Assembly: GCA_012522575.1 (NCBI GenBank)
Contig: JAAYKE010000049.1
Coordinates: forward strand, 2,445-66,444
Source of the DNA: Armatimonadota bacterium
Lineage (GTDB): Bacteria; Armatimonadota; UBA5829
Direction: 5' to 3'
DNA length: 64,000 bases
Position numbers and translations under genes: made by a program. Below, piece after piece: positions 35,925 to 50,102 of this stretch (its first letter is position 1; the number at the start of each line of letters is the position of its first letter). Under the pieces are notes generated by a model, which saw only the letters and a program-made list of their open reading frames with translations, did no database searches and had not been told where the DNA came from.

Positions 35925-38678
35925 ATGGACTATAGCAAAACCGTAAACCTGCCCAGGACGGACTTCCCGATGAAGGCAAACCTGCCGAACAGGGAGCCGG
36001 AATTCCATAAATACTGGGAAGAGCACGAGATTTATAACAAGATATCCCAACGCGACGACGCCAAAGGGACGTTTGTATTCCACGATGGCCCGCCCTATTC
36101 TAACGGCGATATTCACATGGGACATGCGCTCAATAAGTCCCTTAAGGATTTCATTGCGCGTTATAAGGCGATGACCGGCTATCGAGTGCCGTATATCCCC
36201 GGCTGGGATAATCACGGGCTGCCCATCGAACAGAAAGTGGCCGAGGAGTTCCGCAAGAAGAAGCAGAATCCGAGCAAGCTGGAACTGCGTAAAGCGTGCC
36301 GCATCTATGCCGAAAAATGGGTCGGAATCCAGCGTGAGCAGCTCAAAAGGCTGGGGCTTCTCAGCGATTGGGATCACCCATATCTCACCATGAGCCGCGA
36401 ATATGAGGCCACAATCATCAAAGTGTTTGGCGAGATGATGGAGAAGGGCTATATCTACCGCGGGCTTCGGCCAATTTACTGGTGCACCAACGACGAAACC
36501 GCGCTTGCCGAAGCGGAGATCGAATATGCCGACCATACCTCGCATTCGATATTCGTTCGCTTCCCGCTAGTGTGTGACCCAAATGGCATATTCGAGCGCA
36601 AAGAAAACGCTTATACGATAATCTGGACGACGACTCCTTGGACCATCCCGGCCAACCTGGCGGTTGCGGTTCACCCGGACTATGAATATGCCGTTGTGGA
36701 TGTCGCAGGGGATCGTTATCTTATAGCAGCCGAGCTTGTCAGTCGGACGATGGAAGCCGCCGAGGTGGCCGAATATTGCGTCGTCAAGACCGTCAAGGGC
36801 AGCGAACTTGAAGGGCTGGTGTTTAAGCACCCTATTTATGATCGTGAATCCGTGCTGACCCACGCCAACTATGTCACGCTGGAAGATGGAACCGGCATTG
36901 TTCATACCGCGCCGGGACATGGCCGCGAAGACTTTGAGACCGGCAAAAAGTATGGATTGGAAGCGCTGAACCCGGTTGATGAGCGGGGCTACTTCACCGA
37001 GGCCGCCGGACAGTTCGAAGGGCTTCACATTACCAGGCAGGGCAATCAGGCGGTTATCGACGCGATGCGAGAAAACGGCTCTCTGATGGCCGAAAGCAGC
37101 ATAACCCACAGCTACCCGCACTGCTGGAGGTGTCATAAGCCGGTAATATTCCGAGCGACTGAGCAGTGGTTCGTGAGCATCGACCACGACGATTTGCGAA
37201 AGCGCATTCTTAATGAGATCGAATCATCGGTGAGGTGTTTCCCGAAGGAGGGTCGCAATCGACTGTATGCGATGATCGAAAGTTCTCCGGACTGGTGCTT
37301 GTCCAGACAGCGGTCGTGGGGAGTGGCGATCCCGGTGTTGTTCTGTGACGCCTGCCGCGAACCGGTGTTGAGCAAGGATGTCATTGATCTTGTCTATGCG
37401 GATGCGCTGGAAAACGGGTCGGACTCGTGGTTCGAGAAAGATGCCTCGGAGTTTGTGCCGGCAGGGTTCAAATGCGCAGTCTGCGGATGCGAAACATTCG
37501 TCAAAGAAGAGGATGTCCTGGATGTGTGGTTCGATTCCGGGTCGAGCTGCAGAGCCGTGACTGAGCGCCTATATGGTGACTTTGTAGCGGATGTATATCT
37601 GGAAGGCTCAGACCAGCACAGGGGCTGGTTCAACAAGTCGATCATAGTCGGGACCGCAACGAAGGGCGCGTCTCCGTTCAAGGATCTGGTCACACACGGC
37701 TATGTGCTGGACGCCGAAGGCAAGAAGATGAGCAAGTCCGGCGGCAATACGATTGCTCCAAAGGAAGTAACCAAGCATTTCGGCGCGGATATTCTCAGAT
37801 TGTATATCTCATCGCTGAACTATTTTGAGGATGTGCGGTTTGGACAGGAGATGTTCACCCGTGCGGTGGACGCATACAGGCGCATCCGCAACACGTTCAG
37901 GTTCATTCTGGGCAATTTGTCTGACTTTGACCCGGATAACGACGCCGTTGATTATGCGGATATGCCTGAGATCGATAAATTCGCTCTGCATCGGCTTGCC
38001 GAGTTCACCGCCGAAGTGACAAAGGCTTATGAAGTCTATGAGTTTCATAAGGTCTACCATGCGGTGCACAATTACTGCGCGGTGGATTTGAGCGGGTTCT
38101 ATCTGGATGTGCTCAAGGACAGGCTCTATGCATCCGCGGCGGACTCCGATGAGCGTCGCTGTGCTCAGAGCGCTTTGTATCATATATTATCCGTTCTGAC
38201 GCGGGTTGTGGCTCCCGTGCTGGTGCATACATCCGAAGAGGCCTGGCTGGCTATGCCGGGTGAATCCAAAGCGGAGTCGGTGCATCTGGCTCCGTTCGCT
38301 GAGGCGGACTCACGGTGGATCGATTCCGAGCTTGCCGGGCGATGGGGACGCATACTCGAAGTGCGCGACCGTGTGCTGGCGGCTTTGGAAGAAGCAAGGC
38401 AGTCCGGGGCCATAGGCAAGCCGCTGGAGTCCAGGATTATAGTCTCCGCAGAGGATGAACTGCTCGCGTTTTTGAAGGGATATGAGGGCATTCTTCCATC
38501 GGTCTTTATAGTATCACAGGTAGAGCTAAGGCAAGCCGATGAGTTGGCTGTCGAAGTGCAGGCTCCTGCGGGCGCAAAGTGCGCGAGGTGCTGGCTGGTG
38601 CTCGAATCAGTCGGCACAAACGAGGAACACCCGGAACTGTGCAGCCGGTGCGCAGAAGCAATAGCACACTCTCACTGA
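35925..38678 (+). CDS. ileS: Isoleucine--tRNA ligase (bacterial type 1 with a C-terminal zinc finger)
   Basis: 'PPYSNGDIHMGHALNK' (HIGH), 'KMSKSGGN' (KMSKS), C-terminal 'CARCW....CSRC'. Confidence 0.95.
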   Translation: MDYSKTVNLPRTDFPMKANLPNREPEFHKYWEEHEIYNKISQRDDAKGTFVFHDGPPYSNGDIHMGHALNKSLKDFIARYKAMTGYRVPYIPGWDNHGLPIEQKVAEEFRKKKQNPSKLELRKACRIYAEKWVGIQREQLKRLGLLSDWDHPYLTMSREYEATIIKVFGEMMEKGYIYRGLRPIYWCTNDETALAEAEIEYADHTSHSIFVRFPLVCDPNGIFERKENAYTIIWTTTPWTIPANLAVAVHPDYEYAVVDVAGDRYLIAAELVSRTMEAAEVAEYCVVKTVKGSELEGLVFKHPIYDRESVLTHANYVTLEDGTGIVHTAPGHGREDFETGKKYGLEALNPVDERGYFTEAAGQFEGLHITRQGNQAVIDAMRENGSLMAESSITHSYPHCWRCHKPVIFRATEQWFVSIDHDDLRKRILNEIESSVRCFPKEGRNRLYAMIESSPDWCLSRQRSWGVAIPVLFCDACREPVLSKDVIDLVYADALENGSDSWFEKDASEFVPAGFKCAVCGCETFVKEEDVLDVWFDSGSSCRAVTERLYGDFVADVYLEGSDQHRGWFNKSIIVGTATKGASPFKDLVTHGYVLDAEGKKMSKSGGNTIAPKEVTKHFGADILRLYISSLNYFEDVRFGQEMFTRAVDAYRRIRNTFRFILGNLSDFDPDNDAVDYADMPEIDKFALHRLAEFTAEVTKAYEVYEFHKVYHAVHNYCAVDLSGFYLDVLKDRLYASAADSDERRCAQSALYHILSVLTRVVAPVLVHTSEEAWLAMPGESKAESVHLAPFAEADSRWIDSELAGRWGRILEVRDRVLAALEEARQSGAIGKPLESRIIVSAEDELLAFLKGYEGILPSVFIVSQVELRQADELAVEVQAPAGAKCARCWLVLESVGTNEEHPELCSRCAEAIAHSH

Positions 38679-38761
38679 GTGCAATCCGGACATATTCACG
38701 CGCTAAATATAACCGCAAGCCGGGATAAATTGGTCAATGAAATGATTGGAGCCTGAACAGC

Positions 38762-39277
38762 TTGGATCGAAAAAATACGATATTGTTCTATTCGACGGCA
38801 GCGGATGTGGCGGTTATAGATCAGTTGACCAAGTATCTGGCGCGGCAGAACCTCGCGTCCGGCAAGCCTGTGGAGGTGATCGCGGGTCTGCTTGACCTCC
38901 CCCTCAACTTCAACACGGGGGCTGCGTTCGGTCTGCTGCCGGATTGGGCGCCGCTGCTCATAATCATGGCCCTTGTGGCGATATTCATAATCGTAAAACT
39001 GCGCGGCGTTGGCGGCGGTTCTTTGCCTGTTTCGATTGGCCTTGGCCTGCTGCTGGGCGGTGCGATTGGCAACCTCATCGACCGCATCGCATTCCCCGCT
39101 CGCGGCGTGACCGATTTTATCGATATCCACATATTTGTTAAAGGTCAGACGCACGCCTGGCCTACTTTCAATATCGCGGATGTCGGGATAGTGGTCGGCG
39201 CGATTCTGGTTTTGTTTCACGTATATATCCTCGAAAGGATGAGAATGGATGATGGAGACACAGAGGCCGCAGATTGA
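38762..39277 (+). CDS. lspA: Lipoprotein signal peptidase (signal peptidase II)
   Basis: 'NFNTGAAFGLL', 'GNLIDR', 'FNIADVGIVVG' conserved blocks; conserved position downstream of ileS. Confidence 0.85.
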   Translation: MDRKNTILFYSTAADVAVIDQLTKYLARQNLASGKPVEVIAGLLDLPLNFNTGAAFGLLPDWAPLLIIMALVAIFIIVKLRGVGGGSLPVSIGLGLLLGGAIGNLIDRIAFPARGVTDFIDIHIFVKGQTHAWPTFNIADVGIVVGAILVLFHVYILERMRMDDGDTEAAD

Positions 39278-39752
39278 GATAGAGCCGACACCGATTGATC
39301 GAGTGGTGGATACGCTGGCGATGATAGGGCTGTTGTATATGGTGGCGATAACCGTGATCTATTATCCGCAGCTTCCGGCGACCATTCCCACGCATTTCGA
39401 TCTTGCAGGCAAAGTCGACGGCTGGGGATCAAAGTTGACCCTGTCGTTTTTGCCTGTGATAAGCGCGGTCTTTTATTTCGCTTTATCTACGATCACCCGT
39501 TTTCCGCACATATATAACTATCCCGTGCCGATAACCGCGGAGAACGTCGAGAAGCAGTATCGAATCGGAATATCGATTATGCGATGGCTGAAGATGGAGT
39601 TCGTGTGCATTTTCGCATTTCTGACTCAGCAGATAATCGCTGCGGCTCAGGTGAAACATCTTTCGATGCAGCCGTGGGTTCCGATGTTGTTTGTGGCGGC
39701 GATACTGATTACATCGGCTGTGCATATAGTGTTGGCTTATCGCGCGAAGTAG
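39249..39752 (+). CDS. DUF1648 domain membrane protein
   Basis: 'IPTHFDLAGKVDGWGSK' is the DUF1648 signature; four predicted TM helices. Confidence 0.5.
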   Translation: MMETQRPQIEIEPTPIDRVVDTLAMIGLLYMVAITVIYYPQLPATIPTHFDLAGKVDGWGSKLTLSFLPVISAVFYFALSTITRFPHIYNYPVPITAENVEKQYRIGISIMRWLKMEFVCIFAFLTQQIIAAAQVKHLSMQPWVPMLFVAAILITSAVHIVLAYRAK

Positions 39753-39761
39753 TATTGTTTC

Positions 39762-40523
39762 ATGCATAGTACCCTGTTTAAGATATTTGGATTTCCGGTG
39801 CACTCCTATGGCCTGATGATGGTCGTTGGGTTTGCGCTTGGGCTGTGGCGCGCGAGCAGAATATCGAAGAAGCGATATGGAATTGAGCCGGATCGGGTCT
39901 ATGATATGGCCCTGACGCTGCTGATCAGCGGCATAGTGGGATCGCGAATCGTATTTGTGCTCATTAACCCGGACACGGAGAGCTGGAAGGATATGCTGTC
40001 GGTGTGGCAGGGCGGACTAAGTTTCCACGGCGGGCTGATCAGCGCGATGGTTGCAGGAGCTATTTATGCGCGTATTGCGAAGCTGAATTATTGGGTTTGC
40101 GCTGATCTGTTCTCCCCTTCGCTGACGATTGGCTATGCCTGCACTCGAATCGGATGTTTTTTGAACGGCTGCTGCTATGGCGCGCCCACCAATCTGCCCT
40201 GGGGAATGAGATTCCTCGATGAAGGCTTCCTGACTCCGCCCTCTCACCCCACCCAACTCTATGCTGTCGGCGCAAATATTCTGATCCTGTGGGCGTTGAT
40301 TAGGTTGGAGAAGCTGCGCCGAAAGCCCGGTTTCGTATTTGTCGGATATGTCGGGCTTTACTCCATATACAGATTTCTGATCGAGTTTTTGCGCAGCGGA
40401 TATACCGCCAAACTGCTCGCGTTCGGGCTGACTGAGGCGCAGTGGGTAAGCCTGGCGGCCATATTAGCCTCGGCTGTTTTGATGCTCACGGTGTATCGCA
40501 ATCCCCTCAAATCTTCACAATAG
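39762..40523 (+). CDS. lgt: Prolipoprotein diacylglyceryl transferase
   Basis: 'GFPVHSYGLMMVVGFALG', 'GGLSFHGGLI', 'R.GCFLNGCCYG' Lgt signature blocks. Confidence 0.85.
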   Translation: MHSTLFKIFGFPVHSYGLMMVVGFALGLWRASRISKKRYGIEPDRVYDMALTLLISGIVGSRIVFVLINPDTESWKDMLSVWQGGLSFHGGLISAMVAGAIYARIAKLNYWVCADLFSPSLTIGYACTRIGCFLNGCCYGAPTNLPWGMRFLDEGFLTPPSHPTQLYAVGANILILWALIRLEKLRRKPGFVFVGYVGLYSIYRFLIEFLRSGYTAKLLAFGLTEAQWVSLAAILASAVLMLTVYRNPLKSSQ

Positions 40524-40723: not shown

Positions 40724-41227
40724 ATGAATGTCAGACAACGCAGACTCAACTCGGATTTCCAGGCGCTCATCGAGCTTTCCCGCGACAATCCGCTTATTGA
40801 TTTTGATATATTAAGCAACAACAAGGACAGATATGTAGTGATTTATCGATGCAGAGGTCTGCATTGGCTGCCGGGTCGTCCGCGTCCATCCGTTGCTAAT
40901 CTGCATCGTATGGAAATTTATCTTCACCTGGACTACCCGCGCCTGCCTCCGCAACTGCAGTGGCTGACCGATATTTTCCATCCCAACATCCTGCCTCCTT
41001 CGATGAACGGCGGGGTATGCATAGGCAAATGGACCCCGGCGGAATCTCTGGACAGGCTGGTGGTGCGTCTCGGGGAGATGGTGCAGTATAAAAACTATAA
41101 CACAAAGGATCCCATGAACCTGCAAGCGGCCGCTTGGGCGGAAGAGAACTCCTCGTCGCTGCCCGTAGACAACAGGCCGCTGACAAATCATTCTAACCCT
41201 TTGGACATAGGCATAGGAGCGCAATAA
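40724..41227 (+). CDS. Ubiquitin-conjugating enzyme (E2/UBC)-like protein, copy 1
   Basis: 'DIFHPNILPPSMNGGVCIGKWTPAESL' matches the UBC active site (HPN, then the catalytic Cys, then the downstream Trp/Pro); the N-terminal 'RRLNSDFQAL' matches UBC helix 1. Confidence 0.7.
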   Translation: MNVRQRRLNSDFQALIELSRDNPLIDFDILSNNKDRYVVIYRCRGLHWLPGRPRPSVANLHRMEIYLHLDYPRLPPQLQWLTDIFHPNILPPSMNGGVCIGKWTPAESLDRLVVRLGEMVQYKNYNTKDPMNLQAAAWAEENSSSLPVDNRPLTNHSNPLDIGIGAQ

Positions 41228-41228
41228 A

Positions 41229-42167
41229 ATGTCATTTCGGTGTGGAAGGTATTTGCTGTTAGTTATTTGTTTGGGTGTTTTGTTTATCAGTTGCGTGTTC
41301 GCCGACGCCAGAGATGTGGTGGATAAAGTGGGCGATGCAGTGGTAAGCATAGAATGTGATACTCCCGCCGGCGTTTCGGGAGGTTCGGGCGTATTAGTAA
41401 ACCCGGACGGCTACATTCTGACCAACGCTCACGTCATTGATAAAGCAAAAAAAGTGCGGATTAAAATGACGGATGAGAAGCAGTTGAGCGCGAAGGTGGT
41501 GGCTAAAGACAACGAAAATGACCTTGCGATCATCCGCATCAATATCCGAAACCTGCCGGTGGCGGTTATCGGCAACGCGAAGAACGCCAAATCCGGGGAC
41601 AGCGTGGTTGCGATAGGCAGTCCCAAAGGGCTGGATCATACCGTCACCAGCGGGATTGTATCCAAAAGCGACAGAGTAATAAACGGACGCCATTATATTC
41701 AAACCGACGCAGCCCTCAACGAAGGCAACAGCGGTGGCCCGTTGCTGAACGAAAATGGGGAAATTATTGGCATCAATACAATGATTCATAAGAATGCCAA
41801 TCAACTTGGGTTTGCGATTCCCATAAATACGGCTTATGAACTGCTGAACAAAAATAATGTGGCTGTGCTCACGCCGCTGGATAATGAAGAACTTGCAAAG
41901 ACCAAATTGCCAGCCAACAAGACAGAGGGAGCAGGCAGACCATCGACCAAAAAGCCGGGCTGGATTTTATATGTGATTTTGGGAGTGGTTGCGGCGGCTG
42001 TTGCAGCAACCGTTGTGATACTGATTAGAAAGCGCAAAGCGCGAAAGCGGCAGGGAGGTAATGAGGGAGCGCTGGATATCACCCTGCATCCAAAGCTGGC
42101 ACAGGCTCAGCCGGCTGGCCAGGATAACGCCGACGACGGCGATGATTTGGAAATAGAACTGAAATAG
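41229..42167 (+). CDS. Membrane-anchored trypsin-like (S1/HtrA-type, no PDZ) serine protease with an acidic C-terminal tail
   Basis: 'ILTNAHVI' (His), 'NDLAIIRI' (Asp), 'GNSGGPLLN' (Ser) triad blocks; TM helix 'WILYVILGVVAAAVAATVVILI'; ends '...DDGDDLEIELK'; the start lies 1 nt after the E2 stop. Confidence 0.7.
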   Translation: MSFRCGRYLLLVICLGVLFISCVFADARDVVDKVGDAVVSIECDTPAGVSGGSGVLVNPDGYILTNAHVIDKAKKVRIKMTDEKQLSAKVVAKDNENDLAIIRINIRNLPVAVIGNAKNAKSGDSVVAIGSPKGLDHTVTSGIVSKSDRVINGRHYIQTDAALNEGNSGGPLLNENGEIIGINTMIHKNANQLGFAIPINTAYELLNKNNVAVLTPLDNEELAKTKLPANKTEGAGRPSTKKPGWILYVILGVVAAAVAATVVILIRKRKARKRQGGNEGALDITLHPKLAQAQPAGQDNADDGDDLEIELK

Positions 42168-42192
42168 AAACAGAGAGGAGATACACAAGATT

Positions 42193-42462
42193 ATGGGAAA
42201 AGTGGATGTCACGATTATTGACGCTACGGGAAACAAGGAGCAGCAGGCCTCGCTGCCGGACGATGCGCCGGTGAGGAGAATTATCGCCAGGCTGACGGAG
42301 ATGATGCAACTGCCGGCAACCGATCCGGGCGGACAGATGTTGAGCTACAAGTTTCAGCATAAGGCGTCCGGCACGCAGCTTACCGATGATCAGACCCTTG
42401 CCGATGCAAACGTAAAAGATGGGGACGTGCTGCGGATGCTGCCGGAGATTACTGCAGGATGA
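42193..42462 (+). CDS. Ubiquitin-like beta-grasp protein (Ubl) with a C-terminal Ala-Gly
   Basis: 89 aa; ends '...LRMLPEITAG*'; the stop overlaps the E1 start (ATGA); RBS 'GAGAGGAG' upstream. Confidence 0.6.
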   Translation: MGKVDVTIIDATGNKEQQASLPDDAPVRRIIARLTEMMQLPATDPGGQMLSYKFQHKASGTQLTDDQTLADANVKDGDVLRMLPEITAG

Positions 42463-43730
42463 TCGACGATACAGATGATCTCGGCATTGAACTGATCGGC
42501 GACGACGCCGTTGCGCCGGATGCCCAACAGCCGAAACAGGCGGACGAACAAAAGTTGGTGTCAACCGAGGAGGAAGAGGATCGCTACAGCCGTTTCCGAC
42601 TGATTCCGTGGTGGGATCAGGAGTTGCTTAAACGGACGCGCGTGCTGGTAGTTGGAGCGGGTGCGCTCGGCAATGAGATTCTCAAAAATCTTGCCCTGCT
42701 GGGAGTCGGCAAGATATTTCTGATCGATTTGGATCGGATAGAGAACTCCAACTTGTCCAGGTCGGTGCTTTACAGGCTGTCGGATGAGGGATCCGGCAAA
42801 GCGGAAGTAGCTGCGCGGTCGGCGATGGAGATCAACCCTGACATTACCGTGCATCCGTTTATGGGCAATATCGTGCACGATGTGGGCCTGGGTGTGTTCA
42901 GATCAATGGATGTGGTGATCTGCGGACTGGATAATCGAGAGGCGAGGCTGTGGGTCAACCAGTGCTGCTGGCGGGTGAACAGGCCGTGGATCGACGGAGC
43001 TATAGAGGTATTGCACGGCATAGTGCGAGTGTTCGTCCCGCCTGATGGCGCGTGTTATGAATGCACAATGAACGACACCGACTATGAGATGCTGCGGCGG
43101 CGAAAGTCCTGCGCTCTGCTGACCAGAGAACAGATGCTGGAAGGCAAAGTGCCGACCACGCCAACCATATCATCGGTAATCGCGGGAATACAGTGTCAGG
43201 AGGCCGTAAAACTGGTTCACGATCGCCCTGAGCTACCGGTGCTTGAGGGAAAGGGATACTTCTTCAACGGATTGACCCATGACTCATTTGTGGTGAATTA
43301 TACCCGCAAGCAGGATTGTTTGAGCCATGAGACCTTTGAAAACATCAAGGAGATGGACTGGCGGGCGCAGGACCTGACCTTGAGGCAGGCTCTCGAACAT
43401 ATTCGAGCGGATCTCGGAGACGAAGCGGCTCTGGAGCTTAACCGCGAAATTGTATATGAGATGACCTGTGAGCAATGCGATGTCTCGGTTCCGACTTCGA
43501 TGCTGCTGGGGAAGATGACCGAAGCCGATGCCGCTTGCCCGAAATGCCGCGAAGTGATGGCTTTGGAGATGTGTCACAGCGTCTCCGGAGACGAGGCGTT
43601 TGTTGACAAGACCTTCGCCGAAATAGGGCTGCCCGCATTTGACATAGTTGCGGGCAGGTGCGGGATGGAAGAAAGGTACTATGAGTTGAGCGGTGACAGG
43701 GCAAAGATGCTCGGCGACATCGCGGATTGA
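42459..43730 (+). CDS. E1-like ubiquitin-activating enzyme (ThiF/MoeB/HesA family) with a C-terminal CxxC zinc module
   Basis: 'RVLVVGAGALGNEILKNLALLGVGKIFLIDLDRIENSNLSRS' adenylation Rossmann fold; C-terminal 'CYEC', 'CEQC', 'CPKC' pairs; N-terminal acidic 'DDTDDLGIELIGDD'. Confidence 0.8.
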   Translation: MIDDTDDLGIELIGDDAVAPDAQQPKQADEQKLVSTEEEEDRYSRFRLIPWWDQELLKRTRVLVVGAGALGNEILKNLALLGVGKIFLIDLDRIENSNLSRSVLYRLSDEGSGKAEVAARSAMEINPDITVHPFMGNIVHDVGLGVFRSMDVVICGLDNREARLWVNQCCWRVNRPWIDGAIEVLHGIVRVFVPPDGACYECTMNDTDYEMLRRRKSCALLTREQMLEGKVPTTPTISSVIAGIQCQEAVKLVHDRPELPVLEGKGYFFNGLTHDSFVVNYTRKQDCLSHETFENIKEMDWRAQDLTLRQALEHIRADLGDEAALELNREIVYEMTCEQCDVSVPTSMLLGKMTEADAACPKCREVMALEMCHSVSGDEAFVDKTFAEIGLPAFDIVAGRCGMEERYYELSGDRAKMLGDIAD

Positions 43731-44707
43731 GCAAAAAAAGAACGGGTGGGAAGGCTATGACTGCAGAGGATAGACACAATGATGCAGATATTGAGCTTAT
43801 TGTAACCGAAAATCGGCCCAGCGGCGCGATGGATTGTCCGGACATCCGGATCGACCCTGAAGTAGATAAGCAGATACAGACCTTCGCAAAAACAGACACC
43901 GGCAAAGAGTTGGGAGGAGTGCTGCTTGGGGAGCTTATCGCTGATTCCGTAATCCCGCAGGTGAGAATCAAGGCCGCTATTGAGGCCAAACATACGGAAG
44001 CCGTTCAGACAAGCGTCAAATTCACCCACGATACCTGGGACGACATCAACCGGGTCAAGGATGAAAAATATCCGGATATGCGGATAGTCGGGTGGTTCCA
44101 CACTCATCCCGGCTTTGGCATATTCCTGTCGCGGTGGGATATGTTTATCCAGGAAAACTTCTTTAATCTGCCGTGGCAGGTGGCCTATGTGGTCGATCCT
44201 GTCGGTAAAACGAGCGGGTTTTTCCGGTGGGAAAACGGCAAAGTTGCTCAGGTCGGCAAGAAAAAAGAAATTGCGCCTCCTATTGAGGTCACGCTTCCGA
44301 AAGTGGAAAAAGTCGGCAGGTCATTTAACTGGGGAACGGTATTCTCTGTTGTCTTGAACGTTGCGCTGATTGCGGCCGTGGTATATCTTGGCCTGTTCAA
44401 GCCTCCGGAGGTTCGGGTTGAGGAGAAAATCGTAACCGAAGAAGCGCCGGTTAACGTTGAGCGGCAATCGACAACTGAGATGACCGAGCAAGCGCAGACG
44501 TGGACGGAATATGTTGTGCAGAGGGGGGATTCTTTCTGGTCGATAGCCAAGAATTGTTATGGAGAGGGTGAATTATATACCGCTATCCAACTCTTCAACA
44601 ATATGCCCGATAAAAAGGTACTGCACACAGGGGAGCGCTTGCGGCTGCCGTCCAAAGAGATCGCCGTTACGATGCTTGACAAGAGGATCAGACCAGGGAT
44701 TGATTAA
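43727..44707 (+). CDS. JAB/MPN (JAMM) metalloprotease fused to a TM segment and a C-terminal LysM domain
   Basis: 'E..AV' glutamate plus 'WFHTHPGFGIFLSRWD' (HxHx7Sx2D); TM helix 'VFSVVLNVALIAAVVYLGLF'; LysM 'YVVQRGDSFWSIAKNCYG....AIQLFNNMPDKKVLHTGERLRLP'. Confidence 0.75.
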   Translation: MSKKRTGGKAMTAEDRHNDADIELIVTENRPSGAMDCPDIRIDPEVDKQIQTFAKTDTGKELGGVLLGELIADSVIPQVRIKAAIEAKHTEAVQTSVKFTHDTWDDINRVKDEKYPDMRIVGWFHTHPGFGIFLSRWDMFIQENFFNLPWQVAYVVDPVGKTSGFFRWENGKVAQVGKKKEIAPPIEVTLPKVEKVGRSFNWGTVFSVVLNVALIAAVVYLGLFKPPEVRVEEKIVTEEAPVNVERQSTTEMTEQAQTWTEYVVQRGDSFWSIAKNCYGEGELYTAIQLFNNMPDKKVLHTGERLRLPSKEIAVTMLDKRIRPGID

Positions 44708-45301
44708 ATGCGTTCGTCTGTCGGCAAAACGTGTCCATATTGCCAGTATCCCATCAAGCCGGATGAGCCGGTAATCGAGTGCAGTCATTGCGGCATGCCG
44801 CATCATAGGGCTTGCTGGGAATATAACCGCGGGTGTACGACTTATGGCTGCAGCGGAGTGCAGCGGCATGGCAGATTGCCCGTTGCAGGCAATCAGCAGG
44901 GGTCTGATCATATCGACCTTACAGACATAATGCACGAGCCGGAACAGCCGACTCCATACTATCCGCAACAACCGGGATACCAGCCCGCGGAATCGGAAGC
45001 TCCGCTTTTAGCGACATCGAACTCATTAGCGGGCAGCGGAGGAGTGATTGGAGCGATAATCGGAGGATTTATCGGTCTGAGCGGCGGGTGCGCAGGCTGC
45101 ATTCCCGGCGCAATTTTCGGTTTTATCATAGGCGCCTTGATCGGCGGGTTTATGCTCTATGGCATTATAATAACTGTGACCAGCGGGATTGGGTATATGT
45201 TCGGATCAGTCGGCGGGCAGGACGCGGCTATCGGCGGAGCGGCAATCGGGCTGATAGTCGGAGTCATAATAATCGTAATCGGTTGCTGCAAGCAGGCATG
45301 A
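44708..45301 (+). CDS. PHD/RING-like binuclear zinc-finger protein (paralog 1) with a glycine-zipper membrane C-terminus; candidate E3
   Basis: N-terminal 'CPYCQYPIKPDEPVIECSHCGMPHHRACWEYNRGCTTYGC' (C-x2-C-x12-C-x2-C-x3-HH-x2-C-x6-C-x4-C); the C-terminal half is GxxxG-rich and hydrophobic. Confidence 0.55.
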   Translation: MRSSVGKTCPYCQYPIKPDEPVIECSHCGMPHHRACWEYNRGCTTYGCSGVQRHGRLPVAGNQQGSDHIDLTDIMHEPEQPTPYYPQQPGYQPAESEAPLLATSNSLAGSGGVIGAIIGGFIGLSGGCAGCIPGAIFGFIIGALIGGFMLYGIIITVTSGIGYMFGSVGGQDAAIGGAAIGLIVGVIIIVIGCCKQA

Positions 45302-45339
45302 CGATTCATACAAGATCAAGATAGCAGGAGGTTTGATCT

Positions 45340-45939
45340 ATGGCTAATACAGTGGCCGGACCCGCAATAGCCGGCAAGACATGTCCGTTTTGTCAGACTC
45401 CGATAAAACCAAATGAACCTGTGCACATTTGTGACCAGTGCAATATCCCGCATCACCAGGATTGCTGGCGGGAAAATGGCGGCTGCACGACTTTCGGGTG
45501 CAGGGGAGCCAATGCAGCACGCCCAATCATCCCGCAACGAGCTTACGACGATCACTCTCAACCAGTCCAACAGCAGCCCTATTTTCAACCAAATCAGCAA
45601 CCCGGATACGGTAATCAATATCAACAACATTATCAATATGCGCCCGATGTGCCGCCTGAAATAATGGGCAAGCTCAACTGGGGAGCATTTCTTTTGCCTT
45701 TCTTTTGGGCGATAGCCCACAATGTGTGGATCGGACTCTTAATACTGGTTCCCTACGTTGGATGGGTTATGCATTTTGTTCTGCTGTTCAAGGGCAACGA
45801 ATGGGCGTGGAGAAATCGCAGATTCCAGAGCGTTCAACATTTCAACGAAGTGCAAAATGCCTGGGTGATAGCGGGACTCATATTGTTCTTCGGGTCGATA
45901 GTGTTCGTTTTTATATTAATGTCACTGGCGTACGCTTAG
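45340..45939 (+). CDS. PHD/RING-like zinc-finger membrane protein (paralog 2); candidate E3
   Basis: 'CPFCQTPIKPNEPVHICDQCNIPHHQDCWRENGGCTTFGC' has the same ligand spacing; a Gln/Pro/Tyr-rich linker; two or three C-terminal TM helices. Confidence 0.55.
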   Translation: MANTVAGPAIAGKTCPFCQTPIKPNEPVHICDQCNIPHHQDCWRENGGCTTFGCRGANAARPIIPQRAYDDHSQPVQQQPYFQPNQQPGYGNQYQQHYQYAPDVPPEIMGKLNWGAFLLPFFWAIAHNVWIGLLILVPYVGWVMHFVLLFKGNEWAWRNRRFQSVQHFNEVQNAWVIAGLILFFGSIVFVFILMSLAYA

Positions 45940-45962
45940 TTTAGTCAAGTTAGCTGAAATCC

Positions 45963-46847
45963 ATGACCGGCAAGCTCTGTCCATATTGTCAAAATCGTAT
46001 TACGTCGGGGAGCGCGGTTACTGCCTGCCCTGCCTGCAACACTCCGCATCATAGCGAGTGCTGGAACTACAATGGCGGGTGCACGACTTTTGGGTGCCGA
46101 TATATGCCCGGAGCAAGTGCGCATTCTTCAGCACAAGCATACGATGCATACGATGACCTGGATATAGAGCTTTATCCTCCGGGTGGCGGGTATCCGCCTT
46201 CGCGAAGCGGTCATGTGGAGCAGCAACACTACCGGCAGAGCCAGCCCAGGTCAAAGAATTCGTGGTTGTGGGCGATTATTTCGATAACTGCGTTTCTGGG
46301 CATGGTCGCCATTATGATAAGCACGACATTCAATAACCCGACGAATGCATCTTACATGAAACGCGCCATAAAATGCGTCAATCAAGAGCAGTATGAAACT
46401 GCAAAAACCTACTGTAATCTGGCTATTGAACAGGACCCCGAGTGTATGGAGGCATATTATCTGAAGGGCACATTGCTGCTGGAGCTTTGCAATTGGCGGC
46501 ACAACAACATTGAGGTGTGGATGAACCAGGCCAGACACGGTAACACTGAGCGGTTCGATGCGGCAGATGAGTGCTTTAGGCAATGTATCAGGTTCGCGCC
46601 AACTGATACGACTGAATATAACAAATATCTGAAGCTGGATAACTCTGAGATTGTGAGCCGGGCGTATGTCCACCTGGCGATGACGGCAACTCTGCGGATG
46701 CTGGCTAATTATGATGCCAATCGTATGAACGACGCGCTACTATGGGCCAGAATCGCGCGGCAATATCTTAACAAGGTGACATATTACCACCTTGGAACGG
46801 AGTATTACGAACTGGCAGATGCCCTGCAAAAGTTTGTGCCCGGTTAA
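45963..46847 (+). CDS. PHD/RING-like zinc-finger membrane protein (paralog 3) with a C-terminal TPR-like helical domain; candidate E3
   Basis: 'CPYCQNRITSGSAVTACPACNTPHHSECWNYNGGCTTFGC'; one TM helix 'WLWAIISITAFLGMVAIMI'; TPR-like 'YETAKTYCNLAIEQDPECMEAYYLKGTLLLE'. Confidence 0.55.
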   Translation: MTGKLCPYCQNRITSGSAVTACPACNTPHHSECWNYNGGCTTFGCRYMPGASAHSSAQAYDAYDDLDIELYPPGGGYPPSRSGHVEQQHYRQSQPRSKNSWLWAIISITAFLGMVAIMISTTFNNPTNASYMKRAIKCVNQEQYETAKTYCNLAIEQDPECMEAYYLKGTLLLELCNWRHNNIEVWMNQARHGNTERFDAADECFRQCIRFAPTDTTEYNKYLKLDNSEIVSRAYVHLAMTATLRMLANYDANRMNDALLWARIARQYLNKVTYYHLGTEYYELADALQKFVPG

Positions 46848-46897
46848 GATACGCAGCGGCTTAATATACTTGATCAACACAACTGGAGACGATATAT

Positions 46898-47467
46898 ATG
46901 AACCCTAGAATGATGCGTCTGAATGCCGATTACGAGAAGATCAGGACGGAATTTCTCGGCCATAGATATGTTACGGTCGAACCGATGGGTTCGCTGCCGC
47001 CTGAGAGATATAGAATCACATATCGAGTGCCGGGGCTGCGATGGGATAGCTTCGGCAACAGGCCGATTGTCGTCAACGAACATGTCGCGGAGATATATCT
47101 TCACGCTGATTACCCGCGTCAAACGCCAAAAGCTACCCTCAAAACCCCGATTTGGCACCCGAACTTTGGCACATATATCTGCATTGGAGATCACTGGGCG
47201 GCAGGAGAGACGCTGGTGGATATAATCGTGCAGATTGGGGATATGATTCAATATAAGTCCTACAATCCCAAGAGTCCGCTCAATGCAAATGCCGCGATAT
47301 GGTCGATGCAAAACCAGCATCTCTTCCCGGTAGGGACGATCGATATCCTGCAGCCGGAACCGGAGGTGGAGTTTGGCGGCGCAAGCGCAGATGTTGAGGA
47401 GGATGACCTTGGAATTGTGCTGGGGCCAAGCTCCGATAACGATGATCTGGAGATAGAATTCAAATGA
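46898..47467 (+). CDS. E2/UBC-like protein, copy 2, with an acidic C-terminal tail
   Basis: 'PIWHPNFGTYICIGDHWAAGETL' HPN...C motif; N-terminal 'MRLNADYEKI'; ends '...DNDDLEIEFK'; RBS 'GGAGACG' upstream. Confidence 0.7.
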   Translation: MNPRMMRLNADYEKIRTEFLGHRYVTVEPMGSLPPERYRITYRVPGLRWDSFGNRPIVVNEHVAEIYLHADYPRQTPKATLKTPIWHPNFGTYICIGDHWAAGETLVDIIVQIGDMIQYKSYNPKSPLNANAAIWSMQNQHLFPVGTIDILQPEPEVEFGGASADVEEDDLGIVLGPSSDNDDLEIEFK

Positions 47468-48231
47468 CACGGCCAGATGACGCCGGCAATCAAAAAATTG
47501 AAGTGACACTGGACGAGCCGGTCGATACGCCTGAGCAGGGATCAAATAGACCGCAAGGGGAATCGGAAGGCGCGATTCCACCGGGAGCCGTTGAGGTCTA
47601 TATAGACAAGGCTGTGCTTGAATCGACCTGGGAGCATGTGCTCACAAACAGGCGCACCGAGCTTGGCGGAGTGCTGATTGGGCGGCGCAGGGAAGCGGAC
47701 GGAACCTTTACGCACATCACAAACTGGCTTGACGCGAGGCACACGACCACCACCTCCGGCAGCCTGACATTCACACACGATGCCTGGGCCGATATAGCGC
47801 AACGAATGAGCGATATGGATCCGGATGACAAAATTGTCGGATGGTATCATTCTCATCCCGGCCACGGCGTTTTTATGAGCGGCCAGGATAGATTTATCCA
47901 TAATAACTTCTTTGCCAATGACTGGCAGTGTGCGCTGGTGATTGACCCAATTAAAAACGACAGGGGATTGTTTCAATTAGTCAACGGACAGATTGTGCGC
48001 ACCGGGTATTGGTGTGTGCCCGACAAGCCGGTGTATGTGACTCAACAAGATAGTAAGCCCGTTGCCGTGGAAACGCCGCCGCAACAGGATGGGTTGCACG
48101 AAGCGGCAAGCGATTTTCTGGAAGCGGGAGATCATATCGCATCGGGAATAGAGAAATTCGTAAAATATTCTGCACAGCGCATACGCAATTCTAAAGGCCC
48201 GCTTGGCCGGAACATCGACAAAAAGGCGTAA
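47464..48231 (+). CDS. JAB/MPN (JAMM) metalloprotease, copy 2 (soluble)
   Basis: 'ELGGVLIG' glutamate plus 'WYHSHPGHGVFMSGQD' (HxHx7Sx2D); the start overlaps the E2 copy-2 stop (ATGA). Confidence 0.75.
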   Translation: MTRPDDAGNQKIEVTLDEPVDTPEQGSNRPQGESEGAIPPGAVEVYIDKAVLESTWEHVLTNRRTELGGVLIGRRREADGTFTHITNWLDARHTTTTSGSLTFTHDAWADIAQRMSDMDPDDKIVGWYHSHPGHGVFMSGQDRFIHNNFFANDWQCALVIDPIKNDRGLFQLVNGQIVRTGYWCVPDKPVYVTQQDSKPVAVETPPQQDGLHEAASDFLEAGDHIASGIEKFVKYSAQRIRNSKGPLGRNIDKKA

Positions 48232-48258
48232 GACATCGCGCTATAAGGAGCGACTGAG

Positions 48259-49344
48259 ATGAGCAACGACAAAATTGAAATCAGCTTTGACGATGAGGAC
48301 GAGCAGCCGAAGCCCCGGGAAAAGAAACTGATCATTACGAGCGATGACCTGCTCAACGTGCCCGACCCGCAGCCGCTTGCCGCACAGAAGCCTGTGGGGT
48401 TTGATGCGCCTGCGGATTCATATATGCAGTATCAGAAGAAACCATCGGCCTCAGCGGTGTCCGGTCACAGTATTATGCAGGGAGCAATCGCCGGGCTTAT
48501 TGGCGGTTTTTTGGCGTGGGCTGTCACTGAGCCTTTATTTGGGGACAATGTGGCCAGCAGCAATTTTGTCAGTATCATCGTTAAAATGGGTTTTTTCGGC
48601 GGACTGATCGGAGGGCTGATTGGCGGTTGCCTGGGAGCTGCGGATGGAGTTGTTTCAGGAGTTGCTGAAAAGGCGTTCAAGGCCGGCGCAATTGGCTTGG
48701 GGATCGGAATGGGCGGCGGTTTTCTGGGCGGAGTTTTTGGGCAGATTGTCTATGGCGCTCTGCTGCAATCGGGAGAACCCGGACTTGGCACATATATGGT
48801 GGCGCGAACAATCGGCTGGTCGGTGGTGGGTGTGTTCGTTGGGTTGGGACAGGGAGTAGGACGAGGCTCCGGCAAGCGCGTGACTAACGGTTTGCTGGGA
48901 GGTCTGGCTGGCGGTTTTATTGCAGGAATTCTGTTTGACCCAATTTCGGTTTTATTTGCTACCGGATTGTTGAGCCGACTCTTTGGAATCACGATACTCG
49001 GCGCTGCTGCCGGGCTGGCGGTCGGATTGGTGGAGGAAATGCGAAAGCAAGCCTGGTTATCTATAGTCAAAGGGCCGCTTGCGGGCAAGCAGTTTATTTT
49101 ATATGAACAAAGAACGAGAATTGGCAGTTCTCCCAAGTGTGAAATTAGTCTGGTAAAAGACCCGCAGGTGATGCCGGAACACATTGCCATAGATAATCAC
49201 GGCAGCAGTTTCAGCCTCAGCGCTCTTATGGGACAGGCGCTGGTGGACGGACGACCGGTACATCAAACCCGGCTGCAGGCGGGGAATATGATCACACTCG
49301 GTTCGACGTCGCTGCTCTTTGAGGAGAAGGCGATCGGTCAGTAG
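48259..49344 (+). CDS. Membrane protein with a glycine-zipper TM region and a C-terminal FHA-like domain
   Basis: N-terminal acidic 'KIEISFDDEDEQ'; GxxxG-rich hydrophobic core 'GAIAGLIGGFLAWAV...GGLIGGLIGGCLGAADG...GIGMGGGFLGGVFG'; C-terminal 'GKQFILYEQRTRIGSSPKCEISLVKDPQVMPEHIAID.....L.....ALVDGRPV....L..GNMITLGSTSLLFE' matches an FHA fold pattern. Confidence 0.55.
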   Translation: MSNDKIEISFDDEDEQPKPREKKLIITSDDLLNVPDPQPLAAQKPVGFDAPADSYMQYQKKPSASAVSGHSIMQGAIAGLIGGFLAWAVTEPLFGDNVASSNFVSIIVKMGFFGGLIGGLIGGCLGAADGVVSGVAEKAFKAGAIGLGIGMGGGFLGGVFGQIVYGALLQSGEPGLGTYMVARTIGWSVVGVFVGLGQGVGRGSGKRVTNGLLGGLAGGFIAGILFDPISVLFATGLLSRLFGITILGAAAGLAVGLVEEMRKQAWLSIVKGPLAGKQFILYEQRTRIGSSPKCEISLVKDPQVMPEHIAIDNHGSSFSLSALMGQALVDGRPVHQTRLQAGNMITLGSTSLLFEEKAIGQ

Positions 49345-49380
49345 ATATCTGACTAAGGAGCGATAAGGCCATTAACGCAG

Positions 49381-49500
49381 TCATCGGGAAAATCTGCCCT
49401 TTTTGCCAGACTCCTATAAAATCGGAGGACGATTGGGATTCGGATGACGACGACGATGGTTGGGATTCCGAGGAATATGATGATGACTGGGATTACTGAT
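49381..49500 (+). pseudogene. Fragment of a fourth zinc-finger paralog fused to an acidic Trp-rich tail (no ATG start)
   Basis: The in-frame translation '...GKICPFCQTPIKSEDDWDSDDDDDGWDSEEYDDDWDY*' carries only the first CxxC of the paralog motif; the upstream in-frame stop leaves no canonical start. Confidence 0.4.
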
Positions 49501-49526
49501 TTGGTTATAGGGTTGGGAGGGCTAAT

Positions 49527-50102
49527 ATGATCGCGCCTAGGCGCATTTTGGGCCTTATCTGCGGGGTGTGCGCGGTGATATTGGTCGTGGGATGCAGCGG
49601 TGGTAATTCATCCGCGCCTGCCGAGGGAAATCGGCCCCAGTCGCTGTTTAGCGCAGATTTGGCCGAACGACTGGACAGACACGATGCGCAAACCGGGGAT
49701 GTGCAGGCGAGTTTGATCTGGAATAACTACAACGACCTCGACTTGCACATTATTGATCCGAATGATGAACGGATATATTTCGCGCACAAACGGGCCAGGT
49801 CAGGAGGGGAACTCGATGTGGATATGAACGCGCGCGGTCGGGAATCTAATGAGCCGGTCGAAAACATCTATTTCCCGCAAGGCGGAGCGCCCGCCGGACG
49901 CTACAGGGTCTACGTTCATTACTATGCCAAGCACGACTCCGATAACCTCACCCCGTTCAGATGCGAAGTGCTGGTCAAAGATGAGGTGCATAAATTCTCC
50001 GGGGAGATGTCCAAAGGCGATCCGATCCGACTGATTTATGAATTCACACTGGAAGGCAAGCAGGAAAAACCAATTCCACTGCTGTTTTCACCGAGAAGAT
50101 AG
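49527..50102 (+). CDS. Lipoprotein of unknown function
   Basis: 'MIAPRRILGLICGVCAVILVVGCSGG' lipobox; conserved-looking 'LIWNNYNDLDLHIIDPNDERIYF....GGELDVDMN' beta-rich domain; RBS 'GGGAGGG' upstream. Confidence 0.5.
   Translation: MIAPRRILGLICGVCAVILVVGCSGGNSSAPAEGNRPQSLFSADLAERLDRHDAQTGDVQASLIWNNYNDLDLHIIDPNDERIYFAHKRARSGGELDVDMNARGRESNEPVENIYFPQGGAPAGRYRVYVHYYAKHDSDNLTPFRCEVLVKDEVHKFSGEMSKGDPIRLIYEFTLEGKQEKPIPLLFSPRR

Follow-up and report, generated by a model that had tools for sequence, protein, structure and literature searches.

A shared acidic motif in a bacterial ubiquitin-like conjugation cassette and its candidate role in reading the modifier

A recurrent acidic motif on the proteins of one cassette

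A 64,000-nucleotide stretch of an Armatimonadota bacterium genome (assembly GCA_012522575.1, contig JAAYKE010000049.1; hereafter the window) holds a gene cassette that is a complete bacterial ubiquitin-like conjugation system. It comprises a ubiquitin-like modifier (Ubl), an E1, two E2s (E2a and E2b), two JAB peptidases (JABa and JABb), three RING proteins, a membrane protease and an FHA membrane protein. Nearly all proteins of this cassette share a short acidic motif with the consensus [DE][DE]-psi-x-I-[DE]-psi, where psi stands for L, I, V or F. This is a short linear motif placed on flexible cytoplasmic extensions and under protein-level selection. We lean towards the view that it is a beta-strand Ubl-interacting motif, similar to UFM1-interacting motifs (UFIMs) and SUMO-interacting motifs (SIMs), which would tether the Ubl of the cassette non-covalently to enzymes and membrane partners.

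The strict form of the motif in the window, DDL.IE[LF], was found four times in a six-frame translation of the whole 64 kb, and all four matches (4/4) fall in coding frames of the cassette. These are the extreme C-termini of the protease and of E2b, the N-terminus of the E1, and an internal position of RING protein 3. When the residues of the cassette proteins were shuffled 20,000 times, matches averaged 0.00035 and no shuffle gave as many as four. Seven weaker copies lie on six cassette proteins (Table 1); that of RING protein 1 is the weakest assignment of all, and it is doubtful that the E2a copy belongs to the set. The weaker copies are as strong or stronger in orthologues. The original prediction, made from the letters of the window, was right that a short acidic motif is shared at protein termini, and the five sequences it quoted (protease, E2b, E1, FHA protein and E2a) are present as written, the E2a copy lying outside the range 42100-48310 that it gave. 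It overlooked the strict internal copy of RING protein 3 (DDLDIEL, aa 64-70), weaker copies, and the Ubl as a candidate receptor.

Synonymous codons differ among the four strict copies (TTG, CTC or CTG for Leu, ATA or ATT for Ile, GAA or GAG for Glu), and the copies of orthologues likewise vary in synonymous codons with their amino acids retained. The element is therefore a protein motif and not a DNA repeat, and selection acts on the peptide. One further match, to the loose pattern, inside the E1, DLDRIELSNL, was discounted as a Rossmann-fold signature, a class of false positives. This signature, VDLDRIELSNLSR (for instance in L064, 10121-11212), also explains the internal E1 matches in Clostridia and Acidobacteriota, and is a structural element and no copy of the linear motif.

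Conservation of the motif in related cassettes

A scan with the E1, keeping one genome per species, gave 80 loci from Armatimonadota, Clostridia and other Bacillota, Acidobacteriota, Planctomycetota and a few other groups. Gene order among these loci depends on the clade, yet the position of the motif on each protein is constant. For C-termini we used a fixed definition, psi-x-[IV]-[DE]-psi with two acidic residues, within the last nine residues. By this definition the protease carries the C-terminal motif in 33 of 42 non-acidobacterial cassettes, compared with 3 of 962 control open reading frames (ORFs) outside cassettes. Variants of the protease C-terminus include DDLSDIDIELR, DNLEDIDIDLK and ERTDFEIDILE.

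The E1 displays a psi-[DE]-psi strand motif N-terminal to EDRYSRLRLIPWWDQE in nearly all 80 orthologues, with variants such as DDLDIQLIG, QVLDIDLEEDRY and ENILELQSSDFEEDRY standing just ahead of this conserved element. Copies in JABa orthologues read DDINVELTL, DDDIELTI, DDLEISLNP or LDFDIELGE, those in JABb orthologues read DLDIEF, DLEIEF, KIEIKL, EEIQIDIE or ADIQIELH, and the N-terminus of one JAB carries, across the loci, sequences such as NDFDIDILDEE or DELQIEIEA. The N-terminal copy of the FHA protein is kept as NDKIEISFDGEDNE and NRVEISFDGDDEQ. RING protein 3 orthologues keep DDDLGIELHPP, DDDLEIELHPP or DDDLGIVLYPE, other RING proteins of Armatimonadota carry EVLEIELE, DVDIELLE or VLDIEF, and the copy of RING protein 1 is retained as YIDLTDI or VVDLSDI in L001-L003. 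Orthologues of E2a end in PTDVTIGAK, KKLEILLNV or ADDEIIIL, and several E2a proteins of Armatimonadota are without the motif.

Small E2s end in sequences such as DDLEIELR, EDIEIELL and DDVDIKLW. Directly after the UBC fold they carry a copy of the form QPE[PV][ED]I[ED][FL], as in QPEVEIDLL, which corresponds to DTVEIDLF near aa 162 of the long Clostridial E2s. The second copy of the E2b tail, DDLGIVLG, is kept in close homologues. A database search with E2b provided a second, independent set of 120 E2 homologue clusters, in which the last nine residues hold the loose motif in 108 and the strict motif in 67. The motif stops a single residue short of the C-terminus in 63 of these 67 strict tails; Ile occupies position 2 in 65, and D or E is found at position -1 in 64 and at position -2 in 52. 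The resulting logo is D-D-[LIV]-[EDG]-I-[ED]-[LF]-x-COOH. Two to three psi-x-psi-x-psi copies are present in 96 of the 120 tails. Collectively, the motif recurs at the same termini in orthologues of Armatimonadota, Clostridia and other Bacillota and in the 120 E2 clusters, a positional conservation on which the original prediction hinged, and it does not reduce to low-complexity tails.

Acidobacteriota and Planctomycetota display the motif in variant form. The acidobacterial variant is less acidic, with ETIRVDAG on the E1, QPLRITLEDLAD on the FHA protein and PW[AS]EKIVI on the E2. In four Acidobacteriota-like loci (L066, L068, L069 and L072), the E2 ends in PW[AS]EK[IL][VT]I[SERI], which contains Trp and is non-acidic, and the C-terminal region of the protease is different and free of the motif.

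Clostridial cassettes show features of their own. Their E2 has about 620 residues and is built from a UBC fold, two copies of the motif, a middle part and an FHA domain at the C-terminus (L016, 11184-13109, and about 30 other Clostridial loci), and it corresponds to a fusion of the separate E2b and FHA membrane proteins of the window. The tail of their protease (for instance in L011, 7713-8639) ends in ERTDFEIDILE, with an invariant Thr in a T-x-x-[DE] arrangement that resembles an FHA-type phospho-ligand overlapping the motif. The first Clostridial JAB (for instance in L016, 14030-15052) has a Lys-rich start, MAKKKNVKNTKKK, in place of the acidic motif. Meanwhile, JABa of the window has both, starting with MSKKRTGGK and continuing to NDADIELIV.

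The Ubl as candidate receptor and the mode of binding

The structural context of the copies is that of a linear motif. The alignment of E2s shows conservation in the tail only at the motif islands. An AlphaFold2 (AF2) model of E2b places most of the UBC core above 90 in predicted local distance difference test (pLDDT), while residues 151-189 score 45-58, lack secondary structure and are not docked on the core. Conserved islands in a disordered, undocked tail are a hallmark of linear motifs and argue against a structural role in cis, which we rejected for the E2b tail. Hydropathy and positive-inside analysis predict every copy to be cytoplasmic, on the side occupied by Ubl, E1 and E2. The protease tail follows a transmembrane (TM) helix at residues 246-264 that has seven Lys/Arg behind it, the JABa copy is N-terminal to the single helix of that protein, and the linker copy of RING protein 3 lies ahead of its TM helix at residues 102-120. 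The N-terminal copy of the FHA protein is on the same membrane side as its FHA domain, and the LysM domain of JABa lies beyond the membrane helix, thus extracytoplasmic and opposite to the motif.

The natural reading of a shared motif is a common docking function. Three minimal cassettes help to narrow the receptor: L045 and L051 (both Anoxynatronum, L051 being Anoxynatronum sibiricum) and L055 (a related clostridial metagenome-assembled genome). They consist only of Ubl, E1, E2, a JAB-LysM protein and a 119-aa RING protein, are flanked by unrelated metabolic genes and contain neither FHA protein nor protease. Their enzymes nevertheless carry the motif: KPIEIDLEKED on the E1, DDFAITLKP and C-terminal DDVDIKLW on the E2, FLDFDIELGE on the JAB and KLPIIEIDFDDP on the RING protein. 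Since the motif is kept where FHA, protease and TPR modules are missing, these modules are not its general receptor, and each was rejected in that role. The Ubl is the only universal cassette protein free of the motif, which was present in 0 of 79 Ubl orthologues. Hence, of the docking idea in the original prediction, the shared motif with conserved positions stands, and recognition by the FHA or LysM modules as a general receptor fails on L051, which lacks FHA protein and protease, and on the side of the membrane occupied by LysM.

The AF2 model of the Ubl displays a beta-grasp fold (pLDDT 93.6). Foldseek matches include ubiquitin, Caldiarchaeum ubiquitin, NEDD8 and SUMO, and the Bil Ubl (8tyx) is also among the structural neighbours. 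Across clades, strands beta3 and beta5 and the tail are near-invariant (16/19 positions), while beta1, beta2 and alpha1 vary between clades (7/25 invariant). This pattern is a weaker hint at the Ubl as receptor, the invariant part being as expected of a surface shared by E1, E2 and deubiquitinase (DUB).

From these observations we infer the following picture of receptor, binding and function. The motif would add a beta-strand beside strand beta2 of the Ubl (residues 16-22), its alternating hydrophobics (Leu/Ile/Leu) would pack on helix alpha1 (residues 27-37), and the acidic flanks or the C-terminal carboxylate may contact such basic residues as K15, R28, R29 and R33. This mode is modelled on the UBA5 UFIM with UFM1 and on SIMs with SUMO, and would make the motif a second tether independent of catalysis. 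On the E1, the N-terminal copy just upstream of the adenylation domain would capture the Ubl for activation. In dimers of the MoeB/ThiF type, the N-terminal leader emerges beside the active site of the partner subunit, a geometry that may let the tether of the E1 leader work in trans. During transfer, the Ubl would be held by the two to three copies of E2 tails and by the copy after the RING. The JAB copies would recruit Ubl conjugates for removal, and those of the protease and the FHA protein could bring the Ubl or Ubl-modified partners to the membrane.

The closest counterpart is the LC3-interacting region (LIR)/UFIM peptide of human UBA5, EIIHEDNEWGIELVSE. UBA5 is a homodimeric single-domain E1, and the peptide, part of a disordered extension, is the first to touch UFM1; it binds UFM1 on alpha1/beta2 and supports trans-activation. 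The human sequence EDNEWGIELVSE and the window E1 sequence DTDDLGIELIGDD are near-identical (core NEWGIELVSE versus DDLGIELIGDD): both display GIEL, a hydrophobic residue two before the Ile, another after the Leu, and acidic flanks, and both stand outside the catalytic fold on an extension of a single-adenylation-domain E1. The linear UFIM pattern, acidic-[W/hydrophobic]-G/x-I-E/x-L-V, is found at aa 6-13 of the window E1 (DDLGIELI), with an aliphatic residue or Phe at position 0 of the pattern in place of Trp; cassette copies have Leu, Ile or Phe there. The flexible extension is likewise seen: in the E1 the copy precedes the ThiF domain, and the tail that was modelled, that of E2b, is disordered. 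However, the peptide is C-terminal in UBA5 and N-terminal in the window E1, and the UFIM occurs on the E1 and a few readers whereas the cassette motif is found on every pathway component. In addition, the cassette E1 is closer to UBA7, UBA1 and UBA3 than to UBA5, and the Ubl is not UFM1, with weak pairwise similarity only.

SIMs offer a second comparison. They occur at the extreme C-terminus of SAE2 and in extensions of SENP proteases, and the groove that binds them is left open when SUMO is held by catalytic domains, so that a SIM adds a second tether. Like the cassette motif, they join a short hydrophobic beta-strand core to acidic flanks and are placed on flexible parts of an E1, of proteases and of E3s. 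Acidic flanks accompany the cassette copies, and internal and N-terminal copies then run into acidic stretches. Tandem SIMs of RNF4 are multivalent, and the multivalency of the cassette resembles them. Only copies with a hydrophobic residue at +5 (GIELI, IDIL, IELL) match the SIM core psi-x-psi-psi; L or V stands at +5 in 23 of the 67 strict E2 tails. Enzymes of the Atg8 pathway provide a third case, with the C-terminal LIR of ATG4B, the Atg8-interacting motif (AIM) of Atg3 and the tail of Atg7. There, too, a protease, an E1-like and an E2-like enzyme of one Ubl pathway carry such motifs, and an acidic hydrophobic motif sits at the very end of the processing protease.

By its sequence, the alternation psi-x-psi-x-psi of the core is UFIM-like. 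The motif is best described as a bacterial variant of beta-strand Ubl-interacting linear motifs and not as a member of the UFIM or SIM family, because its proposed partner is not UFM1 or SUMO, Trp is absent from position 0, the SIM core is matched in part and the LIR core is not matched. It is unusual in being present on every pathway component and in standing one to two residues from the C-terminus at a fixed distance.

Covariation of charge lends weak support to the Ubl as receptor. At the level of loci, net charge over Ubl residues 1-39 is correlated with the charge of the E1 leader (rho -0.63, n=77) and with that of the E2 C-terminus (rho -0.68, n=33), while residues 40-89 show no such relation to either (rho -0.02 and +0.21).

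Several points, however, weigh against the Ubl as receptor of a UFIM- or SIM-like motif. This covariation is phylogenetically confounded and may reflect shared ancestry (eight clade means, rho -0.61, p = 0.11). The elimination argument leaves a folded domain of a motif-bearing protein as a further candidate for the receptor. The acidobacterial Ubl is about 60% identical, yet the motif is weak or altered in that clade (ETIRVDAG on the E1, PLRITLEDL, PWAEKIVIR) and gone from the protease. No natural Ubl fusion joining the motif appeared among the best 120 of 550 Ubl matches, all 89-105 aa long. By sequence, the Ubl belongs to neither the UFM1 nor the SUMO family: Rad60-SLD scores 21.3 bits, below the cut-off of 23.8, and YukD scores 54.5 bits. 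Among its closest structural neighbours are ubiquitin and NEDD8, which are said not to bind motifs in a groove. The alternating core departs from the psi-psi-x-psi or psi-x-psi-psi of a classical SIM. As for the LIR core, [W/F/Y]-x-x-[L/I/V], window copies have no aromatic residue at position 0 and a hydrophobic spacing of 2 and not 3, and the Clostridial variant F-E-I-D-I-L has Asp three after Phe.

Docking on something other than the Ubl must also be weighed. The motif might act as an assembly code, each copy docking on a folded domain of one of the core enzymes (for instance the C-terminal domain of the E1, the backside of the E2 or the domain of the JAB) to give one multi-enzyme complex of soluble and membrane parts. 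We consider this main rival reading unlikely, even though the motif is found on every enzyme and on membrane partners, elimination leaves room for a receptor that carries the motif itself, and eukaryotic E1 tails bear an E2-binding sequence beside the UFIM (the R3 region of UBA5 binds UFC1). An assembly code would require competition in cis and in trans, its receptor being itself motif-bearing; the AF2 model gives no docking of the E2b tail on its own UBC domain, the two to three tandem copies per E2 tail are more readily explained by multivalent Ubl binding than by one docking site, and the charge of the motif tracks the N-terminal half of the Ubl. Recognition by the FHA domain, which binds phospho-threonine, or by LysM is far less probable. 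The invariant Thr of the Clostridial protease tails, the fusion of Clostridial E2s to an FHA domain and the contact of YukD with FHA domains in the type VIIb secretion system would suit an FHA ligand. But the strict window copies are without Thr or Ser, the minimal cassettes bear the motif on all four enzymes and have no FHA protein, and the cassettes showed no kinase gene; LysM stands outside the cytoplasm and the motif inside. FHA recognition survives only as a clade-specific addition in Clostridia.

Readings in which nothing heterologous is docked appear improbable to us. Under these, the motif would be a self-associating acidic beta-strand (perhaps bridged by divalent cations), a localisation signal, a degron, or a pseudosubstrate mimicking the Ubl tail (PEITAG versus LEIELK). 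Its alternating hydrophobic/acidic pattern could indeed build intermolecular sheets, and Ca2+-mediated assembly is known for other bacterial Ubls, but strongly acidic strands are mutually repulsive. A degron or a localisation signal, both also raised by the original prediction, found no positive support. Several bearers are membrane proteins, as localisation would have it; the same sequence at N-termini, at C-termini and internally is unusual for bacterial terminal degrons. Mimicry of the tail draws on the EI common to the motif and the invariant Ubl tail, yet that tail is invariant and the motif varies between clades, and the RING, FHA and protease proteins offer a pseudosubstrate no catalytic cleft that binds tails. 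An origin at the nucleotide level, from purine-rich Shine-Dalgarno-like junctions, or by chance from generic acidic low-complexity tails carries a negligible probability. Several copies do lie at stop/start overlaps (Ubl/E1 at 42459-42462, E1/JABa at 43727-43730, E2b/JABb at 47464-47467). However, codons turn over synonymously with the amino acids retained, internal copies exist, the protease copy is retained whether the Ubl or a JAB gene comes next, and matches are rare both in shuffles and at control ORF termini. These results refute chance as well as an origin at the nucleotide level; a DNA repeat or a Shine-Dalgarno junction is rejected on the synonymous codons and on gene orders that differ among clades.

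The cassette in its genomic and evolutionary setting

Every gene from 40724 to 50102 is on the + strand, and together they make up one cassette (Table 1). Among the Pfam matches, UQ_con has E-values of 1e-10 and 7e-9 for the two E2s, and JAB of 6e-11 and 9e-12 for the two JABs. A ThiF E1, a UBC E2, a beta-grasp Ubl, a JAB and Prok-RING_1 proteins are thus co-located, with folds confirmed by structure models.

Table 1. Genes of the cassette and motif copies on their products (positions in the window)
Feature	Positions	Strand	Description	Basis or context
E2a	40724-41227	+	UBC-fold E2	Pfam UQ_con
Protease	41229-42167	+	trypsin-like; N-terminal signal/anchor and second membrane helix	Pfam
Ubl	42193-42462	+	89 aa, C-terminal end PEITAG	Pfam YukD, 2e-14
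E1	42459-43730	+	ThiF-type, ThiF domain aa 46-287	Pfam ThiF, 2e-54
JABa	43727-44707	+	JAB peptidase, membrane helix, LysM domain	Pfam
RING protein 1	44708-45301	+	Prok-RING_1 and membrane segments	Pfam
RING protein 2	45340-45939	+	Prok-RING_1 and membrane segments	Pfam
RING protein 3	45963-46847	+	Prok-RING_1, membrane segments, TPRs	Pfam
E2b	46898-47467	+	second E2	Pfam UQ_con
JABb	47464-48231	+	soluble JAB peptidase	Pfam
FHA protein	48259-49344	+	multi-pass membrane protein, FHA domain aa 269-356 at its end	Pfam
DUF2135-like protein	49527-50102	+	predicted lipoprotein	Pfam
Motif, E2a C-terminus	41198..41224	+	PLDIGIGAQ, aa 159-167; degenerate psi-x-psi-x-psi	
Motif, protease extreme C-terminus	42132..42164	+	DDGDDLEIELK, aa 302-312; strict	after TM 246-264
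Motif, E1 N-terminus	42465..42506	+	MIDDTDDLGIELIGDD / DDTDDLGIELIGDD, aa 3-16; strict	upstream of ThiF domain
Motif, JABa N-terminus	43778..43804	+	NDADIELIV, aa 18-26; weaker	
Motif, RING protein 1	44903..44929	+	SDHIDLTDI, aa 66-74; degenerate	after RING, before membrane segments
Motif, RING protein 3, internal	46149..46175	+	YDDLDIELY, aa 63-71; strict	between Prok-RING_1 and TM 102-120
Motif, E2b tail copy 1	47351..47377	+	QPEPEVEFG, aa 152-160; weaker	directly after UBC fold
Motif, E2b tail copy 2	47396..47425	+	EEDDLGIVLG, aa 167-176; weaker	
Motif, E2b tail copy 3, extreme C-terminus	47435..47464	+	DNDDLEIEFK, aa 180-189; strict	
Motif, JABb N-terminus	47488..47517	+	NQKIEVTLDE, aa 9-18; weaker	
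Motif, FHA protein N-terminus	48265..48303	+	MSNDKIEISFDDEDEQ / NDKIEISFDDEDE, aa 3-15; variant	

The Ubl database search recovered a protein with 100% identity to the Ubl from an Armatimonadetes metagenome-assembled genome. We found no solved structures from the cassette family: the closest solved relatives of the E1 are the eukaryotic UBA7, UBA1 and UBA3, and the Ubl returned only a weak ubiquitin match. The core of the E2b model resembles UBE2K, UbcH5 and Ubc13. A viral origin of the cassette was rejected, with no relatives in IMG/VR.

The Ubl ends exactly in PEITAG in Armatimonadota and Acidobacteriota, and has 1-6 extra residues in many Clostridia. In L008, L015 and L023, the Ubl, encoded upstream of the E1, reads in frame into a zinc-ribbon and membrane protein, and C-terminal processing is therefore needed at those loci. 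These Ubl-Zn-ribbon-TM proteins are the only fusions in the loci and are free of the motif.

Directly upstream of the cassette are ileS, lspA, a small membrane protein and lgt (35925-40523), which include lipoprotein maturation genes, and GC content does not mark the cassette as an island. The predicted DUF2135-like lipoprotein, which is without the motif, is conserved in the closest relatives (L001, 18017-18646; L003, 18079-18672), where its gene likewise forms the 3' end of the cassette. Between it and the FHA protein lies a 48-aa ORF (49353-49499, + strand), in which only the first zinc knuckle of Prok-RING_1, GKICPFCQTPIK, is left, joined directly to an acidic tail rich in Trp and Tyr. Its orthologues are intact 184-aa proteins with RING, TM helix and acidic tail (L001, 17466-18020; L003, 17489-18043), and the window copy is therefore an internal-deletion remnant. 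In the intact proteins, the aromatic/acidic tail follows the membrane helix and is on the other membrane side from the RING. The original prediction had counted the tail of this zinc-finger fragment, DDWDSDDDDDGWDSEEYDDDWDY, as an occurrence of the motif; the tail is present, but it is a different element on the remnant of a RING-TM-acidic-tail gene.

Eukaryote-like operons with E1, E2, RING, JAB and Ubl genes received their first bioinformatic outline from Burroughs, Iyer and Aravind (2011), and prokaryotic RING fingers were defined in this class of gene neighbourhood. The window cassette has the same ThiF E1, UQ_con E2, JAB, Prok-RING_1 and small beta-grasp Ubl. Meanwhile, the Bil, Bub and CBASS Cap2/Cap3 systems also use E1/E2/JAB/Ubl machinery. 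PADLOC gave weak, partial and generic matches for the E1 (E1-E2, BilD) and the JAB proteins only, and none for the Ubl, E2 or RING proteins, so the cassette does not classify as a Bil or CBASS Cap2-Cap3 defence system; it differs in its separate canonical UBC E2s, RING E3s and membrane-anchored partners. In agreement with the original prediction, we found no description of such a motif in published work on Bil, Bub and CBASS, and none for this operon type, although a prior mention is possible in the 2011 paper on Prok-RING operons; eukaryotic analogues exist in the UBA5 LIR/UFIM and in SIMs. The literature search likewise returned no experiments on this operon type.

No ubiquitination machinery known in bacteria is more eukaryote-like than this cassette family, which has a separate E1, a canonical UBC E2, a RING E3, a JAB DUB and a ubiquitin-fold modifier. 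The motif gives an experimental handle on the family: its peptides are suited to pull-downs, recruitment could be separated from catalysis by point mutations, and the sequence pattern is usable for genome searches of further readers or substrates. In addition, the disordered acidic tails of hundreds of metagenomic proteins would have to be annotated as functional elements.

The reading of a Ubl groove by a short acidic beta-strand peptide is regarded as a eukaryotic speciality of SUMO, UFM1 and Atg8. If the Ubl is indeed the receptor, motif-based (class I) Ubl recognition would not be a eukaryotic invention, and the cassette would provide a simple model of how E1, E2, E3 and DUB share one modifier. 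A bolder proposal, which we hold to be doubtful, is that groove-type peptide reading is an organising principle of this bacterial E1-E2-RING-DUB system, with a multivalent Ubl-motif network at the membrane, and that the likeness to the UBA5 UFIM reflects common descent and not convergence. If such a network exists, one peptide handle would be present on every enzyme and on the sensor-like membrane partners, namely the LysM peptidase, the extracytoplasmic protease and the FHA protein.

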